This document shows positions 1-6,212 of a DNA stretch of 64,000 nt, piece after piece (the first letter of the stretch is position 1; every line of letters begins with the position of its first letter). Source of the DNA: Clostridia bacterium (GTDB lineage Bacteria > Bacillota > Clostridia > UMGS1883 > UMGS1540); the NCBI GenBank assembly GCA_045533905.1, contig JAZSIR010000001.1, positions 32,001-96,000 on the forward strand. Reading direction: 5' to 3'. The position numbers and the translations under genes were made by a program. The notes beneath the pieces were generated by a model, which saw nothing but the letters and a program-made list of their open reading frames with translations, had not been told where the DNA came from and made no database searches.

Positions 1-2
1 TG

Positions 3-3000
3 TCTTTGCACGTGAATGTAATCCCCAGGCGCGTCAATCCCAAAACTTTCAAAGGTGCTTTTAACAAACTCGTCCGAATAGTTGCTCTCACGCCTCGCGG
101 GGACGCTTTCAACCGCTTTTATATAGTCGGAGTCTTTGAGAGAAAAATCACTCTTGACAATTTTTTGGGGGTGTGATATATTATCCCTAGAGTAGTTCTC
201 TTTAACGTCTTGGACGTACGCCTTGCGGATTTCATGCAAATCAGCGAGATATTGAGAACTACTCTGTTTTTTATGTATAGCATCAATCAAGCCATACAGG
301 TTTGGAATACTATCTATCCCCGTTTTTACCATTTGCTTGTTAATAAGAAGTTTTTCTCTGTTATATTCCGTTGTTATTGCTTCGACATAATAAATCACAT
401 CACCCGGCATTACTTTTACATAAATCAAACCCGGATCACCATTTGCGTTTGTTTTGTAAAATACTTTATCGTAATTTTCAACAATATACGGAATTAGCTC
501 AACATCTGCTTCGGTAACAGGGTATTTTTCATTTGTTTTTTTGCCGTGGGAGTTCTTGATATGCCGAATATCATTATCGCGCAACGCATGAGAATAACCC
601 GATATATCCACATCAGAAGATACTTCATTTATCAAATCCCTTCCAACCTTTAGGAATTTAATGTAAGATTTTTCATTATCGTTTAGATAGGCTTTTTCTA
701 TGTACCGGTTGATGTCAGATTGCGTAACCTCAAAATCAAACACTTTATCCGCATATCCTAATGTCTTCAAGGAAAAGTCCACACCGCCCTCTGGAGCGGT
801 GTTCTTTTGTCCGTCTATTCTCTTGAGTGAATAGCTCTTTTCTTCCGATTCTCTGAAGAGATTTTCGAGGACATTTCTAAAAGCTCGGCTTCCGTTGCGT
901 TGGGATTGTCTCGGCAAAACTCCAACATTTTGATTGTGTCTTCCGCCTCCCAGGTTTCGAAGATTATTTTGACTACTGTTGACATTTTGCAACCAACTTC
1001 CTTGAGATACCCTTTGAGCAAAACTTGGTTTTCCGTTAATACCCTTGCCATCTTCTTCGTCCTCCAATAAATCAATTAAAATATCTAATTCAAAGCTTCC
1101 GTCATCGCCTTTTCTTTCGTAGAGGATTGTAGGATGTTCTGGGGTTTCCGTGCTGTATATGGCAAACAAAGCTTCTCCGTCAATTCTGCCTTTATACCAA
1201 CATCCAACCGTATCTGCGATTCTTTTAGGTTCGTGATTCTCAACCTGCCGAATCCAGTCTTCCAGCATTTTGAACTGCGTTGCGTTCAAATCTGTGCGCC
1301 ATTTTAACGAATAGCTTGTATTTCCATTATACTCCGCTCCCATGTTTTTTTCAAGAGTATCGGAGGAATTCTCTTTTTTGAGAGAAATTTCATTCTTGAC
1401 AGAATTTGAATTTTGTGGTATATTGTCATTAGAAACACTATCCCGTGTAGCCTGTCTTTCGGCAGGCAATCTGGTCATTCTTTCGAGAAGACCAATCTCG
1501 GCGGTAGTGTTTTCTTCAATCCCAACAATATCGTATAGGTATTTGTTGCCATCAGAAGCATTCCTAATCAACAGCTCGACATCAAAAGCTCGTACCTTTG
1601 TTATCTTTCCTCGATTATCTTTTATCGGGAAAGCAAAGGAATTAGCATAACGATACATACCATACTTCGCATCCTTATTATGTGTGTGCTGCGTCTTTTC
1701 CCACCTGCGATTCGTAGCTGTTTCTATCAATTCTCCAAAGCCGTCAACAGCTTTATTTTTACCTCTTGCGGCGGTGCGATTAACCCTACGGAGAAAAGTG
1801 GTGTACTTCGAATGCGTGTACTCTTGCGGCAAATCCTCGCCAATGTAGACCTTCTGCCCACTTTCTATAATCGTATAAACTTCGCCTATATGTTGTGCAA
1901 TGTAGCCTGCAACAGCTTGATGGCTGTTTAATTGCTTGTTGGTCAGTCCACTTTCTTCAATCCATACAAAGCTCTTGCCATCAACATTTTTCAAGCTAAA
2001 GTCTACGCCGTCCTCTGTGTCGGTGTTTTTTTGTGCCTCTGCGGTCTGTTTAGTATGAGCCTTTGCTTCCACCGCCTTTTTGTTTTCCACAGCCTTTGCG
2101 ACAGCAGTCTCAAACATATCGCGAAGACTTGTGATTTCGTCAAGCTTTGGCTGAATCTTTGCTTTTTCTTTGGCGCTCTTGCCTGCAAGAAAATCACGAA
2201 TTTTCCTAATCATCTCGGCAAGATACTCAATGTACTTCCGCAAGCCTTGCTTTGCCTTTTCGTCCGTGCCGTTGATGATGCTGTCAATAGCCTTATGGAA
2301 TCGCGCCTCATCGTTGCCGTAAAGGTAGAGAATGTTGTTTGCAGAAACTTCTTCCATTGCCTTTGCAAGAGATATTTCCTCGCCCTGTGCGGCGTATGCA
2401 CTTCGTTTTTGGTCTGCAACGGTAAATATAGACGGCTCATTGCCGGCAATGTGATTATACATCGCATACACAAACGCGCTGCCTTCTTCAGGGGCAAGGT
2501 CGACAACTCTATGCAGCGCTATTTCGTGCGCCGCATGGAAGACAATAGATACCTTCTGCCCGCCCACTTCTCTTTCAAAATCGAAGTCAATAGGCACTTC
2601 CCCCGTTTGCCTGTTGTACTCGGCGTTGCCTTTTAGGCCCTTTGCCATATACGCCTTTACGCCAAGTCCTTCTGCTAAAAGATTGAGCGTTGCAACCTCG
2701 CTTTGTTTAACATCGCTCGGCAGGTTTTCCGCAAGAACGCCGCTTTCCATATTTACAACTGCATTTCTAAACCTTTCTTTGGCGGCGAGGTCTTCCATTT
2801 TTCTGTCCATCTGCCCTGCCGTGAACGCATCTTCTTGTGCTTTGGATATAAATACGTCCTTGCCTTTTTTAACATTCAAGTCCGGTTGCTTAAAGCCTGT
2901 CATGTACGATGCCTTGACCTCTTCCAGCACTTTGTTAAAGGTTGCCCCGTCTGCATTCGAATAATTGGCCACAAGTTTCGCCCCTTCCTCGCCAAACCCC

Positions 3001-3191
3001 GTGACCTTTCTTACCTCGTCGGCGGTTATCTCCACGCCGTTCTCGGTGAGGACATCTAGTGTTTCGCTGCTTACGATTCCTCTTCTGCGGTTTTCAAGAA
3101 GGGTGTAACCGTCTACTCGATTTTTTCTACCGCGCCCATTGCCTTCCTTATACGCAAAAAGGCTGTGAAACCTAGGTTTCACATCCTTTTC
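3..3191 (-). CDS. Large polyvalent protein (partial, runs off the left edge): zincin-like metallopeptidase + LPD3-like + small unknown domain + PBECR-like RNase
   Basis: Hand translation gives no stop from 3191 to base 3. Motifs: HEIALH (2511-2528) with downstream MEEVSAN; HNKDAKYGMYRY...LLIRNASDGNKYLYDIV (LPD3-like); DIRHIKNSHG...PVTEADVELIPYIVENYD (PBECR-like). Recurrent DFSLK/SYSLK/EISLK linkers. True start codon uncertain. Confidence 0.85.
154..182 (+). promoter_or_regulatory. sigma-A promoter antisense to the polyvalent gene
   Basis: TTGACA (154-159), 17-bp spacer, TATATT (177-182) with extended -10 TG. Confidence 0.75.
189..272 (+). ncRNA. Putative three-way-junction small RNA 1
   Basis: Starts 7 nt after the -10. 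12-bp closing stem AGAGTAGTTCTC (189-200)/GAGAACTACTCT (254-265), inner hairpins 205-217 and 222-248, then GTTTTTT. Confidence 0.65.
781..808 (+). terminator. Intrinsic terminator inside the polyvalent gene linker (antisense orientation)
   Basis: ACACCGC-8 nt-GCGGTGT followed by TCTTTT. Confidence 0.6.
815..1051 (-). CDS. Nested 78-aa protein in an alternate frame of the polyvalent gene (candidate antitoxin/immunity protein)
   Basis: GGAGG (1061-1065) 9 nt before ATG 1051; MARVLTENQVLLKGYLKEVGC...; protein-like helical sequence while the host frame here is linker-like. Confidence 0.7.
   Translation of the reverse strand: MARVLTENQVLLKGYLKEVGCKMSTVVKIIFETWEAEDTIKMLEFCRDNPNATEAELLEMSSKISSENRKKRAIHSRE
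1326..1354 (-). promoter_or_regulatory. Internal sigma-A promoter, sense to the polyvalent gene, upstream of the nested ORF
   Basis: Minus strand TTGAAA (1354-1349), 17-bp spacer, TATAAT (1331-1326). Confidence 0.7.
1396..1424 (+). promoter_or_regulatory. Second antisense sigma-A promoter
   Basis: TTGACA (1396-1401), 17-bp spacer, TATATT (1419-1424) with extended -10 TG. Confidence 0.75.
1431..1516 (+). ncRNA. Putative three-way-junction small RNA 2
   Basis: Starts 7 nt after the -10. Closing stem AAACACTATC (1433-1442)/GGTAGTGTTT (1503-1512), hairpin GCCTGTC-TTTC-GGCAGGC (1450-1467), UUCG-capped hairpin 1472-1494, U-rich tail. Confidence 0.65.
2005..2032 (+). terminator. Intrinsic terminator inside the polyvalent gene linker (antisense orientation)
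   Basis: ACGCCG-10 nt-CGGTGT followed by TTTTTT; homologous to 781-808. Confidence 0.6.
3156..3190 (-). terminator. Terminator after the acyl-CoA synthetase gene
   Basis: Inverted repeat AAAAGGcTGTGAAAC-CTAG-GTTTCACAtCCTTTT. Confidence 0.75.
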
Positions 3192-4820
3192 TTATTTCTC
3201 GATTTGCTTTTTTACGAGGCTTTCGCCGCAGTATTTTTCGCGGAGTTTCGGTTTTTCGATTTTGCCGGTGGGGTTGCGCGGTACATCGGCGAAGATGATG
3301 CGGCGCGGTCTTTTATATCGTGGAAGTGCCTGACAAAACGCTTCGATATCTGCTTCCGTGCAGGTGCTGCCGGGCTGCAGTTCGATAATGGCCGCGGCAA
3401 TCTCGCCGAGTCTGTCATCCGGAAGGCCGATAACGCCCACGTCCTTAATCTCGCGGTTTGTGCGGAGAAAATCTTCAATCTGCACAGGGTAGAGGTTTTC
3501 GCCGCCTGTGATGATAACGTCTTTTTTGCGGTCTACGAGGAAAATGAAGCCATCCGCATCTTCCATGGCCATATCGCCTGTGTAGAGCCAGCCGTCGTGC
3601 AGTACCGCATTTGTGGCCACCTCATCGCGATAATAGCATTTCATAACGCCGGGGCCTTTTACTGCAAGTTCCCCCACTTCGCCACGAGAAACGGTGCTTC
3701 CGTTTTCGTCAATAATCTTCGTTTCCCAAAGATGACCGGCAATACCGATGGCGCCCACCTTATGTATATTCTCTACGCCAAGATGTACACAGCCGGGGCC
3801 GATAGATTCGGAAAGCCCGTAATTGGTATCATATGCGTGATTCGGGAAACGCTCACGCCAGCGCTTTATAAGGCTCGGCGGTACCGGCTGTGCGCCGATA
3901 TGCATGAGCCGCCAAGAAGCAAGGTCATATTCTTCTATATTGACATCGCCGCGGTCAATCGCATCGAGAATATCCTGCGCCCACGGCACGAGAAGCCATA
4001 CGATAGATGCCTTTTCCTCGGAAGCGGCTTTTAAAATCCACTCCGGCTTTACGCCGCGAAGAAGCACTGCTTTGCCGCCGACCAGAAAGCTTCCGAACCA
4101 ATGCATCTTCGCGCCGGTATGATACAGCGGCGGAATGCAGAGGAACACATCGTCCTTCGTTTGCCCGTGGTGTTTATTTTCCGTAATGCACGAGGATATG
4201 AGGCTTCTGTGTGCATGCAAAATAGCCTTGGGGAAGCCTGTGGTGCCGGAAGAAAAGTAGATGGCCGCATCGTCCTCTTCCGAAAGCGGTGCATCCGTAA
4301 AGTCTGCACACATTTCGGGGAGGCGCCCGTTATAATCTACGGCAAAATCGGGTGTATCCTCACCCACAAAGATATATTGTTTCACGCCGGGCATATCGCC
4401 CTTGGCCGCGGTTACGCGTTCTGTAAACTCAGGGCCAAAGATCAAAACATCCACCTCAGCAAGACCCGAGCAATAGGAAATTTCATCTGCTGCATAGCGG
4501 AAATTCATAGGCACGGCCAGTGCGCCCGTTTTGAGAATACCAAAATAGATGGGAAGCCACTCGAGGCAGTTCATAAGAAGGATTGCAACCTTATCCCCCT
4601 TCTTGATGCCAAGCGCTGTGAGCATATTGGCAAAGCGGCAGGCGCTTTCGTCAAACTCGCGCCATGTGATTTCGCGGCGCCCTGCATTTTTTGCGGCCGC
4701 TTCCACTAGCTCAAAATCGCGCCAAGCCTGCTTTTCACGCACCTCGGGGCTGATTTCTACAAGCGCCGCACAGCTACCGTACTTCCTTGCATTTTCTCTT
4801 AAAACCTCAGTAATAACCAT
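3192..4820 (-). CDS. AMP-binding acyl-CoA synthetase (class I adenylate-forming enzyme)
   Basis: YFSSGTTGFPK, YGLSE, GWLYTGD and PRNPTGKI motifs. Confidence 0.93.
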   Translation of the reverse strand: MVITEVLRENARKYGSCAALVEISPEVREKQAWRDFELVEAAAKNAGRREITWREFDESACRFANMLTALGIKKGDKVAILLMNCLEWLPIYFGILKTGALAVPMNFRYAADEISYCSGLAEVDVLIFGPEFTERVTAAKGDMPGVKQYIFVGEDTPDFAVDYNGRLPEMCADFTDAPLSEEDDAAIYFSSGTTGFPKAILHAHRSLISSCITENKHHGQTKDDVFLCIPPLYHTGAKMHWFGSFLVGGKAVLLRGVKPEWILKAASEEKASIVWLLVPWAQDILDAIDRGDVNIEEYDLASWRLMHIGAQPVPPSLIKRWRERFPNHAYDTNYGLSESIGPGCVHLGVENIHKVGAIGIAGHLWETKIIDENGSTVSRGEVGELAVKGPGVMKCYYRDEVATNAVLHDGWLYTGDMAMEDADGFIFLVDRKKDVIITGGENLYPVQIEDFLRTNREIKDVGVIGLPDDRLGEIAAAIIELQPGSTCTEADIEAFCQALPRYKRPRRIIFADVPRNPTGKIEKPKLREKYCGESLVKKQIEK

Positions 4821-4964
4821 GTATACCGTCCTTCCGTACTGCATAATGTACTATTTATACAGTATACCGCAAAAAAAGGAGTTTGTAAATACCCAAAATT
4901 TCTTTTCGCATACTTTTTCTGTTTGTGCACAAGATAAGAAAAGTATATAAAAAGGAGAACCCCA

Positions 4965-6212
4965 ATGTCTCTCATCCGCATCCGTCCCACGGGGCCGCTT
5001 TCGGGCACTGTGCGCATTGCCGGTGCCAAAAATGCGGCGCTCCCTATCCTTGCCGCAACGCTTTTAGCCTCTTCCCCCTGCACGCTCTATGAAATCCCGC
5101 CGCTCTCCGATGTGTACAATATGCTGGAAATTATCAAAAAACTCGGCGCGGTATGTTTGCCTTCTTCAAAAGGGCTTCACATTGACACGCGCGGCGTGCA
5201 AAACCTCGAAGCCGCCTACACGGATACAAGCCGCCTTCGTGCCTCTTTTCTCATTGCGGGGCCGCTTCTTGCCAAGTACGGCCGCTTCAAAATTGCGCTT
5301 CCCGGCGGCTGTAAAATCGGCACGCGCCCTATCGACCTCCATCTGAAAGGCTTTGCCGCGATGGGCGCGCAGCTTACACATACACACGGCTATATAGAAG
5401 CAGAAGCTGCCCGGCTTCGGGGCGCAAATATATATCTGGACTTCCCGAGTGTTGGGGCAACGGAAAACATCATGCTGGCCGCGTGCCTCGCTGACGGGCA
5501 GACCGTAATTGAAAACGCGGCAGTGGAGCCGGAAATCACCGACCTTGCAACCTTTCTGTCCCGTATGGGTGCAGAGGTGCGCGGTGCCGGCACGGATACT
5601 GTCAAGATATGGGGAAAGCCTTCTCTGCACGCCGCCGAGCACACCATCATTCCCGACAGGATTGAGGCCGGCACCTTTATGGTGGCCGCGGCCATTACGG
5701 GAGGGCGGGTGGAACTTCGAAACATTGTGCCCGAGCATATAAAGCCGCTTTCGGCAAAGCTTCGTGAAATGGGCGTGCGGATTACGGAAAGTGAGACCTC
5801 CGCCCTTATAGAGGCCGGTGCGGAGCTTATACCCACCGATATCAAAACGCTTCCCTTCCCCGGTTTCCCCACGGACATGCAGTCCCAGCTTTGTGCGCTT
5901 ATGAGTGTGGCGCAGGGCACGGGCATTATCACGGAAACGGTTTTTGAAAATCGTTTCATGCACGTAAACGAGCTTCGGCGTATGGGCGCCGACATTACTA
6001 TTGAAGGGCGCGCCGCCATCGTGAAAGGAAGGGCGCATCTTATGGGTACGCGCGTGGCCGCCCCAGACCTTCGTGCCGGTGCGGCGCTTGTGCTTGCGGG
6101 CCTTGTGGCCGACGGCGAAACAGAAATCGAAGGTGCAGAATATATTGCGCGGGGGTACGCGCATTTCCCTGAGAAGCTCCGTGCGCTTGGAGCAGATATG
6201 CAGGCAAGATAA
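4965..6212 (+). CDS. murA: UDP-N-acetylglucosamine 1-carboxyvinyltransferase
   Basis: GAKNAALP, LPGGCKIGTRPIDLH, PGFPTDMQ, DLRAGAAL. Confidence 0.97.
   Translation: MSLIRIRPTGPLSGTVRIAGAKNAALPILAATLLASSPCTLYEIPPLSDVYNMLEIIKKLGAVCLPSSKGLHIDTRGVQNLEAAYTDTSRLRASFLIAGPLLAKYGRFKIALPGGCKIGTRPIDLHLKGFAAMGAQLTHTHGYIEAEAARLRGANIYLDFPSVGATENIMLAACLADGQTVIENAAVEPEITDLATFLSRMGAEVRGAGTDTVKIWGKPSLHAAEHTIIPDRIEAGTFMVAAAITGGRVELRNIVPEHIKPLSAKLREMGVRITESETSALIEAGAELIPTDIKTLPFPGFPTDMQSQLCALMSVAQGTGIITETVFENRFMHVNELRRMGADITIEGRAAIVKGRAHLMGTRVAAPDLRAGAALVLAGLVADGETEIEGAEYIARGYAHFPEKLRALGADMQAR

Follow-up and report, generated by a model that had tools for sequence, protein, structure and literature searches.

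Near the left end of the window, by which we mean the whole 64,000-nucleotide stretch of a Clostridia bacterium analysed here, a promoter and the sequence of a structured RNA lie antisense within the coding sequence of a large protein. We asked what such an RNA could be for, and why it should be placed at the tail of a protein domain. The overlapped frame (1..3182, minus strand; 1365 codons, open and extending 915 nt beyond the window's left edge) encodes a fragment of a polyvalent protein in which a HExxH-containing region, an LPD3-like domain (codons 395-559), an unnamed domain, PBECR3 (codons 857-941) and LPD3 (codons 1081-1179) follow one another. It is incomplete at both ends, its relatives being longer by 450-570 residues at the front and by about 900 at the rear. 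Iyer et al. 2017 (PMC5512222) described polyvalent proteins with PBECR, MuF-C and LPD3 domains; the frame shares PBECR3 and LPD3 with them, and the domain of interest is LPD3-like. Three predicted RNAs lie along it: RNA 2, the main subject of this work, after the LPD3-like domain, RNA 1 after PBECR3 and RNA 3 after LPD3. A terminator-like GC-rich hairpin (781-802, plus strand) is also present in the linker before PBECR3, and no promoter was detected for it.

The element at 1396-1516, placed in the linker that follows the LPD3-like domain, was confirmed as an antisense sigma-70 promoter with, behind it, the sequence of an RNA predicted to fold as a three-way junction. The promoter, on the plus strand, has a −35 hexamer TTGACA at 1396..1401, where the coding strand reads V-K, and 17 nt past it a TG extension with the −10 hexamer TATATT (1416..1424; TG at 1416-1417, TATATT at 1419-1424), giving 11/12 consensus matches. 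The predicted small RNA 2 (1431..1516, plus strand, ~86 nt) is antisense to codons 556-584. On the same strand, its closing stem is formed by P1/P1b (5' strand 1432..1447) and P1b/P1 (3' strand 1497..1513, placed from the predicted fold and covariation) and encloses hairpin P2 (1450..1467, loop UUUC) and hairpin P3 (1472..1494), whose UUCG loop is closed by U-A; a U-rich end at 1510..1520 is the likely terminator. Segment 1431-1516 folds at −36.5 kcal/mol (z −6.16), and 0/200 dinucleotide shuffles were equally stable. The initial annotation had proposed codon-preserving shuffles as the yardstick for this fold, and it proved more stable than 1000/1000 synonymous-codon resamples drawn with the ORF's usage and 999/1000 drawn with uniform usage (0/1000 and 1/1000 as stable, respectively). 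Stability alone would not settle the case, because 8 of the 11/133 sliding windows of the ORF that reach z < −2.5 lie away from the three cassettes. The U-tract is degraded in this copy (C1517 and A1518, positions at which 98% and 94% of the family carry T), so that the 3' end of RNA 2 in the window may be less sharp. Rfam gave no match at the element (E <= 10), and ARAGORN found 0 tRNA genes in positions 1-6000 of the window. Where the unnamed domain begins, a strong promoter-like site on the sense strand (1354-1326, minus strand, TTGAAA-17-TATAAT) stands back to back with the promoter of RNA 2; it is also present in another genome, G002, and could provide separate expression of the downstream domains.

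The RNA 1 cassette (154..272, plus strand, after PBECR3) belongs to a separate RNA family. As had been annotated, its promoter at 154-182 has the same design as the one at 1396-1424 (TTGACA-17-TATATT with a TG extension), and in both cassettes an AGA begins 7 nt past the −10 hexamer, at 189 for RNA 1 and at 1431 for RNA 2. The annotated lack of primary-sequence similarity was borne out as well, since 333/500 shuffles aligned equally well and the covariance model of the RNA 2 family gave RNA 1 only 10.4 bits (E 8.1). A promoter and a closed RNA of two hairpins, including a conserved one, were found in 4/6 viral PBECR3 relatives, and in an alignment with one wrongly cut row (L198) this RNA 1 family has invariant loop nucleotides; cassettes of the same type occur in L117 and in G005, the RNA 1 of the latter being one base from that of the window. 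The third cassette lies outside the window (G000:C11:31515-31625, window −485 to −375). It has a TTGACT-17-TACACT promoter at −485 and a 76-nt structured RNA from −450 to −375, whose fold was matched in stability by 0/1000 codon resamples. A 45-bp linker repeat of 87% identity (window 134-178 and C11:31495-31539) includes the −35 hexamer and codes for the motif that ends the module; it is possibly a recombination joint for module shuffling.

To follow the LPD3-like domain and RNA 2 beyond the window, we used loci (L003-L196) from viral, metagenome and genome collections, the two larger scans contributing the best 80 of 487 and the best 80 of 317. The 198 domain copies were reduced to 148 distinct copies with enough flank, 68 of which continue into a longer protein (embedded) while 80 stop within 50 codons (stand-alone). 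A promoter was present at a fixed distance in 60/68 embedded and 68/80 stand-alone copies. When a single scan was applied to each part of the locus, it found a promoter in the antisense strand of the tail in 61/68 and 73/80 copies, against 1/68 and 5/80 in the sense strand of the tail and 1/68 and 1/80 in the domain core. Among the embedded relatives (n=62), the −35 is TTGACA or TTGACT in 54/62 and the spacer is 17 nt in 57/62, and the RNA starts with AGA in 36/62; the spacer and the AGA start are thus family traits. The initial annotation had given the two window cassettes a TG extension, which both indeed have, and a closing stem with two hairpins, one of them UUCG-capped, a fold that we also found. 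Neither the TG extension (21/62) nor the UUCG loop (7/62) is conserved among the embedded relatives, which rules both out as defining features.

We then looked for compensatory changes among 35 non-redundant RNAs of embedded copies aligned with MAFFT, four of the 39 (L020, L021, L022 and L025) being excluded because each folds as one extended hairpin. In this plain alignment 22/24 tested pairs change on both sides, with compensatory changes in 15/17 pairs of P1+P1b and 7/7 pairs of P3, and the covariation score was 0.496, compared with 0.253 for shuffled alignments (0/500 reach the observed value) and 0.16-0.24 for slid registers. In a model-fitted alignment, which is biased toward structure, 27/30 pairs covary, including 5/6 in P2, whose register varies among relatives. 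RNAalifold run on the MAFFT alignment returned the closing stem only, because the hairpin registers shift. All of the 35 RNAs form a three-way junction (35/35, median z −4.6), compared with 21.9% of codon-resampled controls, and in 35/35 the antisense strand is more stable than the sense strand. By a loose test used without a control, the closing stem is kept in 67/68 embedded relatives. Few unpaired nucleotides are conserved in this family. The initial annotation had argued from the geometry shared by RNA 1 and RNA 2 to selection on structure. We retain the selection, because the relatives covary, but not the argument: the topology is shared by 21.9% of the controls, and the stand-alone RNAs and several LPD3 relatives fold otherwise. 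Searched with the RNA 2 model, 72 sources gave 49 matches, all at the domain tail and including copies that fail the strict promoter pattern. In 150 other genomes of the class, with 28 candidates scored per genome, the model had no match, so that no orphan RNA was found there; the domain itself occurs in 2 of them.

The end of the domain gives a second view of selection at the RNA level. The residues I-K-E/K found there use ATA-AAA almost exclusively, with AAA 56 times and AAG 3 times in embedded copies (background 570:414), and 79 times and 0 times in stand-alone copies (background 632:447). Read antisense, the fixed AAA codons are the U-tract after the closing stem, meaning that the codons on the terminator side are fixed at the DNA level. 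In the stand-alone genes the promoter is located in non-coding DNA, and the stop codon falls inside the RNA at a shifting position (14 codons after YLYD in 32/80, 19 in 30/80). Because the stop moves while the promoter and the stem persist, the conservation does not lie in the peptide of the tail. The 11-bp closing stem of these copies is 96.8% paired, with modest covariation (7/17 pairs). Their RNAs are shorter than RNA 2, adopt other folds that its model does not match, and contain unpaired U's that are invariant beyond the stop codon; Rfam gave no match to them in the 10 loci scanned (E <= 1). No universal protein partner was found beside the stand-alone genes. A small upstream ORF (19/71) makes up the largest cluster of neighbours, and the 55 of 81 neighbour representatives that were scanned are mixed regulators and housekeeping genes. 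In one locus (L148:1-5519, Butyrivibrio hungatei), a stand-alone copy and its RNA directly follow cas1, cas2, a csn2-like gene and a masked array, names that were read from the translations. Loci L170, L090 and L158 each hold two stand-alone copies with different RNAs close together.

Is the arrangement peculiar to this domain? Over 62 polyvalent ORFs (352,014 nt) we counted 113 strong promoters in the antisense orientation and 12 in the sense orientation; when a closed structured RNA had to follow, the counts were 78 and 1. A single ORF can hold up to six cassettes, whose folds differ. With domain positions taken from Pfam and from profiles built here, a cassette follows the focal domain in 48/55 cases, LPD3 in 14/16, MuF-C in 4/7 and PBECR3 in 1/1, but ADP-ribosyltransferases in 0/16, PBECR5 in 0/6, the HExxH motif in 1/51, and LPD1, LPD23 and the unnamed domain in 0/1 each, random positions giving 1/173; as the sequences are related, these counts are not independent trials. 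The cassettes are thus restricted to LPD3/PBECR-type domains. Each domain family carries its own RNA family, which supports cognate pairing in the sense of genetic linkage. The cognate nuclease-RNA pairs of the initial annotation hold to that extent, and the nuclease role and the binding are discussed below as probable properties. In the MuF-C modules of L117, L118 and L009, the C-terminal GLQLP motif corresponds, in reverse complement, to a hairpin that is conserved in the module's own antisense RNA. In phage Mu gp30, whose MuF-C is predicted to be inactive, the scan found no antisense promoter; this is one case from another host and was not weighed.

We next considered what the LPD3-like domain might do (1506..2000, minus strand; 165 aa, predicted alpha/beta fold). 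The window domain has no match to LPD3 (PF18798) above the Pfam gathering cut-off, while weak matches are seen in 21/95 relatives (best E 5.1e-5). Comparison with an LPD3 profile built here by hhalign gave a probability of 75.9 (E 2.3e-5, 66 columns), structure matches in BFVD are polyvalent and LPD3-named viral proteins (TM 0.43-0.76), and the neighbour cluster in the Atlas is 47% LPD3, at 0.89. These comparisons of profiles and predicted models point to remote homology and a shared fold with LPD3, in agreement with the LPD3-like label first given to the domain. We counted 91 relatives within large proteins, and the domain search returned one phage record of the annotated collection and no plasmid. 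NCBIfam, PHROGs, PADLOC and PDB sequence searches gave no name for the domain, nor was there a Pfam, NCBIfam, PHROG or PADLOC match to the ToxN, CptN, TenpN or AbiF families. The model predicted from 95 sequences (pLDDT 92.3), which replaced an earlier one from 7 sequences (pLDDT 59.7), shows a helix (75-93) followed by four strands. Its best match among solved structures, a weak one, is 6cp9, the Klebsiella CdiA tRNase (Z 4.8, rmsd 3.8, 101 aligned), which is a BECR tRNase (PMC9086364). Many BECR toxins follow at Z 3.2-4.2, among them ParE, RelE, BrnT and colicins E5 and D at Z 3.3-4.2, interleaved with VirB8/NTF2-like folds, and Foldseek on the PDB returned NTF2-like rows alone (TM <= 0.29) and no BECR row. 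The invariant residues of the domain are E60, K81, G114, Y154, L155, Y156 and D157. No His or Arg reaches 90% conservation, and a conserved histidine is a trait of the PBECR RNases as section 19 of PMC5512222 presents them. We therefore consider a nuclease role likely for the domain, and a BECR-like fold possible, the fold matches being weak and mixed and the histidine not conserved.

What, then, is the RNA for? The reading that we favour, with a probability of roughly 0.55, is that it is a domain-specific antitoxin, likely binding and blocking its cognate predicted RNase at the protein level. That it is the domain's built-in antidote seems likely because relatives keep the domain and the RNA together. 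The host sigma-70 polymerase would produce an RNA of ~85 nt from 1431, ending at the U-tract; the domain would be a BECR-like RNase toxin, and in cells carrying the gene the RNA would bind it, possibly as a decoy that takes the place of a structured substrate RNA, tRNA for instance. Domain protein delivered into a cell that lacks the RNA would then be free to act. Since the RNA gene lies inside the coding tail of the module, any shuffling among polyvalent proteins would move toxin and antidote as one unit, and the stand-alone gene and RNA of Lachnospiraceae may be a two-part form, ancestral or derived. Neutralisation at the protein level fits best with a predicted RNase that hardly ever occurs without its private RNA and has no universal protein partner, with one RNA per domain even in a single mRNA, and with the absence of the RNA after other effector domains; a single antisense RNA would presumably be enough to silence one mRNA. 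The main results that speak against an antitoxin are PBECR5, a predicted BECR RNase that has no cassette, and the weak fold match. Further ones are the MuF-C domains without a detected cassette (3/7), the scarcity of conserved unpaired nucleotides in RNA 2, and, in the window, a degraded U-tract in a gene that is a fragment. The upstream ORF of the stand-alone genes could be a protein partner, and the convergent 3' overlap recalls type I systems (PMC6562991).

This last resemblance leads to the rival that survives best, although we think it unlikely: the RNA would pair with the overlapped mRNA and, through RNase III cleavage or a translation block, limit the toxic domain, each module needing its own copy because internal or read-through promoters can drive its transcription. 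The convergent 3' overlap suits this rival no less well, and for the stand-alone genes it may hold. Lambda OOP RNA has its own promoter, is transcribed convergently and overlaps the 3' part of a gene. The same is true of RatA, SR4 and SR6, the Bacillus subtilis type I antitoxins of txpA, bsrG and yonT (PMC6562991), and at the sequence level RNA 2 shares with them a cis-encoded position, a promoter of its own and complementarity to the toxin mRNA. This complementarity is perfect, but it is automatic; in addition, the stand-alone RNAs span the stop codon, and the sense promoter-like site at 1354-1326 lies inside the ORF. Silencing of the message explains less well why up to six cassettes with different folds are apparently all maintained in one ORF, and why other toxin-like domains of the same mRNAs (ADP-ribosyltransferases) have none. 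The strong closing stem would moreover sequester both ends of the RNA, and simple pairing needs neither the invariant loops of RNA 1 nor the unpaired U's of the stand-alone RNAs, although a kissing interaction could use them. Type I antitoxins also target the mRNA of mostly small toxins, whereas here the partner is a globular domain of 165 aa, and unlike them the RNA can sit deep in an ORF of 2000-2900 codons that holds several different RNAs.

It is quite improbable that the RNA is instead a positive partner of the domain (guide, cofactor or chaperone) packaged or delivered with it as an RNP. One-to-one linkage and domain-specific folds would fit any cognate RNP, but there is no variable single-stranded segment beyond loops of 4-9 nt that could act as a guide, and a constitutive host-type promoter would be expected to fire in lysogens and not specifically at virion assembly. 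We also regard as very doubtful an effect exerted through transcription or DNA, that is, convergent transcription dampening read-through, or a stem marking boundaries for recombination or mRNA processing. The cassettes do lie at module ends beside the repeated 45-bp linker; however, the strand-asymmetric stability and the G-U-rich pairing favour an antisense RNA, the U-tract codons are fixed, the internal hairpins covary, and modules lacking RNase-type domains lack the element. Finally, the idea that the element is a side effect of the protein sequence and of codon bias in an AT-rich linker, and has no role as an RNA, is barely credible and was rejected: other windows of the ORF do reach z < −2.5 and the −35/−10 hexamers coincide with recurring linker residues, but the promoter is fixed and specific to one strand of the tail, promoter and stem continue past the stop in stand-alone genes, compensatory changes occur despite divergent peptides, and synonymous codons are fixed.

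In type III toxin-antitoxin systems (ToxIN, CptIN, TenpIN) a structured RNA is proposed to neutralise its cognate RNase directly (PMC3401426). The likeness is one of proposed logic, a structured RNA against an RNase, and not of layout, as in one respect the RNA departs from type III systems: it is present once, in antisense orientation, at the 3' tail, both in the window and in its relatives. In a Clostridioides difficile prophage, the AbiF toxin is neutralised by the small RNA RCd22 through direct contact (bioRxiv 10.1101/2025.04.15.648962). AbiF is an Abi_2 family protein and its RNA has repeated abiF motifs, neither of which was matched here, and unlike RCd22 the RNA described here is antisense within the coding sequence of multidomain proteins. 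The main text of PMC5512222 does not use the words 'noncoding' or 'RNA component', and its section 19 gives no immunity partner for PBECR domains. Likewise, neither 'antisense' nor 'RNA antitoxin' appears in the text of a 2026 preprint on BECR classification, and the polyvalent proteins are mentioned in PMC11879866, PMC11980606 and PMC10910872 in passages that give no antisense RNA feature. Outside subscription journals and supplementary tables of candidate RNAs, the literature searched contained no description of the arrangement. We conclude that it is real and widespread and, pending bench tests, a variant of RNA-antitoxin systems.

The frame sits between an AMP-ligase gene and a trio of serine-recombinase genes. 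A 39-bp direct repeat of the 3' end of the ligase gene (3187..3225; second copy outside the window at G000:C11:31080-31118, 90% identical), whose left copy adjoins the trio, bounds a 4.1-kb fragment, and the frame of the fragment and the ligase have their last residues in common. A similar truncated polyvalent frame of 917-1368 codons was found in 5/9 genomes of the genus. The four others, L214 (G002), L215 (G008), L216 (G005) and L217 (G001), differ in their modules, but every one of them retains one or more intact antisense cassettes of promoter and structured RNA. These same-genus fragments lie among housekeeping genes, three of them near a tRNA gene, and the motif at which they start is shared by those of G000, G002 and G005. 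Two fragments reach contig ends and all of the genomes are assemblies, so that some may be chimeras; if the fragments are real, the hosts may keep them for their RNAs. Orphan toxin/immunity cassettes are known for the CDI, Rhs and MuF polymorphic toxins, in which truncated toxin modules are kept with the cognate immunity factor. There the factor is encoded by a downstream protein gene; in the present case an RNA within the module would take that role. A bolder proposal, which we put forward tentatively and would not yet lean on, is that phage polyvalent proteins consist of self-immunising modules: the tail of each LPD3/PBECR-type RNase domain would hold, in antisense orientation, the gene of a private structured RNA that binds and inhibits the domain, type I in geometry and type III in mechanism. 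The internal fragments of 3-4 kb in the chromosomes of this genus would then be kept by their hosts as orphan cassettes of RNA immunity against the RNases that incoming phages inject.

For the PBECR and LPD3 domains, predicted phage RNases for which the describing paper names no immunity partner in its account of them (PMC5512222), these results supply a candidate partner. They also explain the C-terminal 'motifs' IKEN, YVQDV, GLQLP and SI..VK that recur in these domains: what they spell out, in reverse complement, is an RNA gene together with its promoter. Complete RNA genes here overlap protein-coding sequence and travel with the shuffled domains. Polyvalent proteins would in this way provide many natural candidate pairs of an RNase and its cognate RNA inhibitor, and the signature of an antisense promoter followed by a closed RNA may offer a way to spot RNase-type domains among the unnamed domains of phages.
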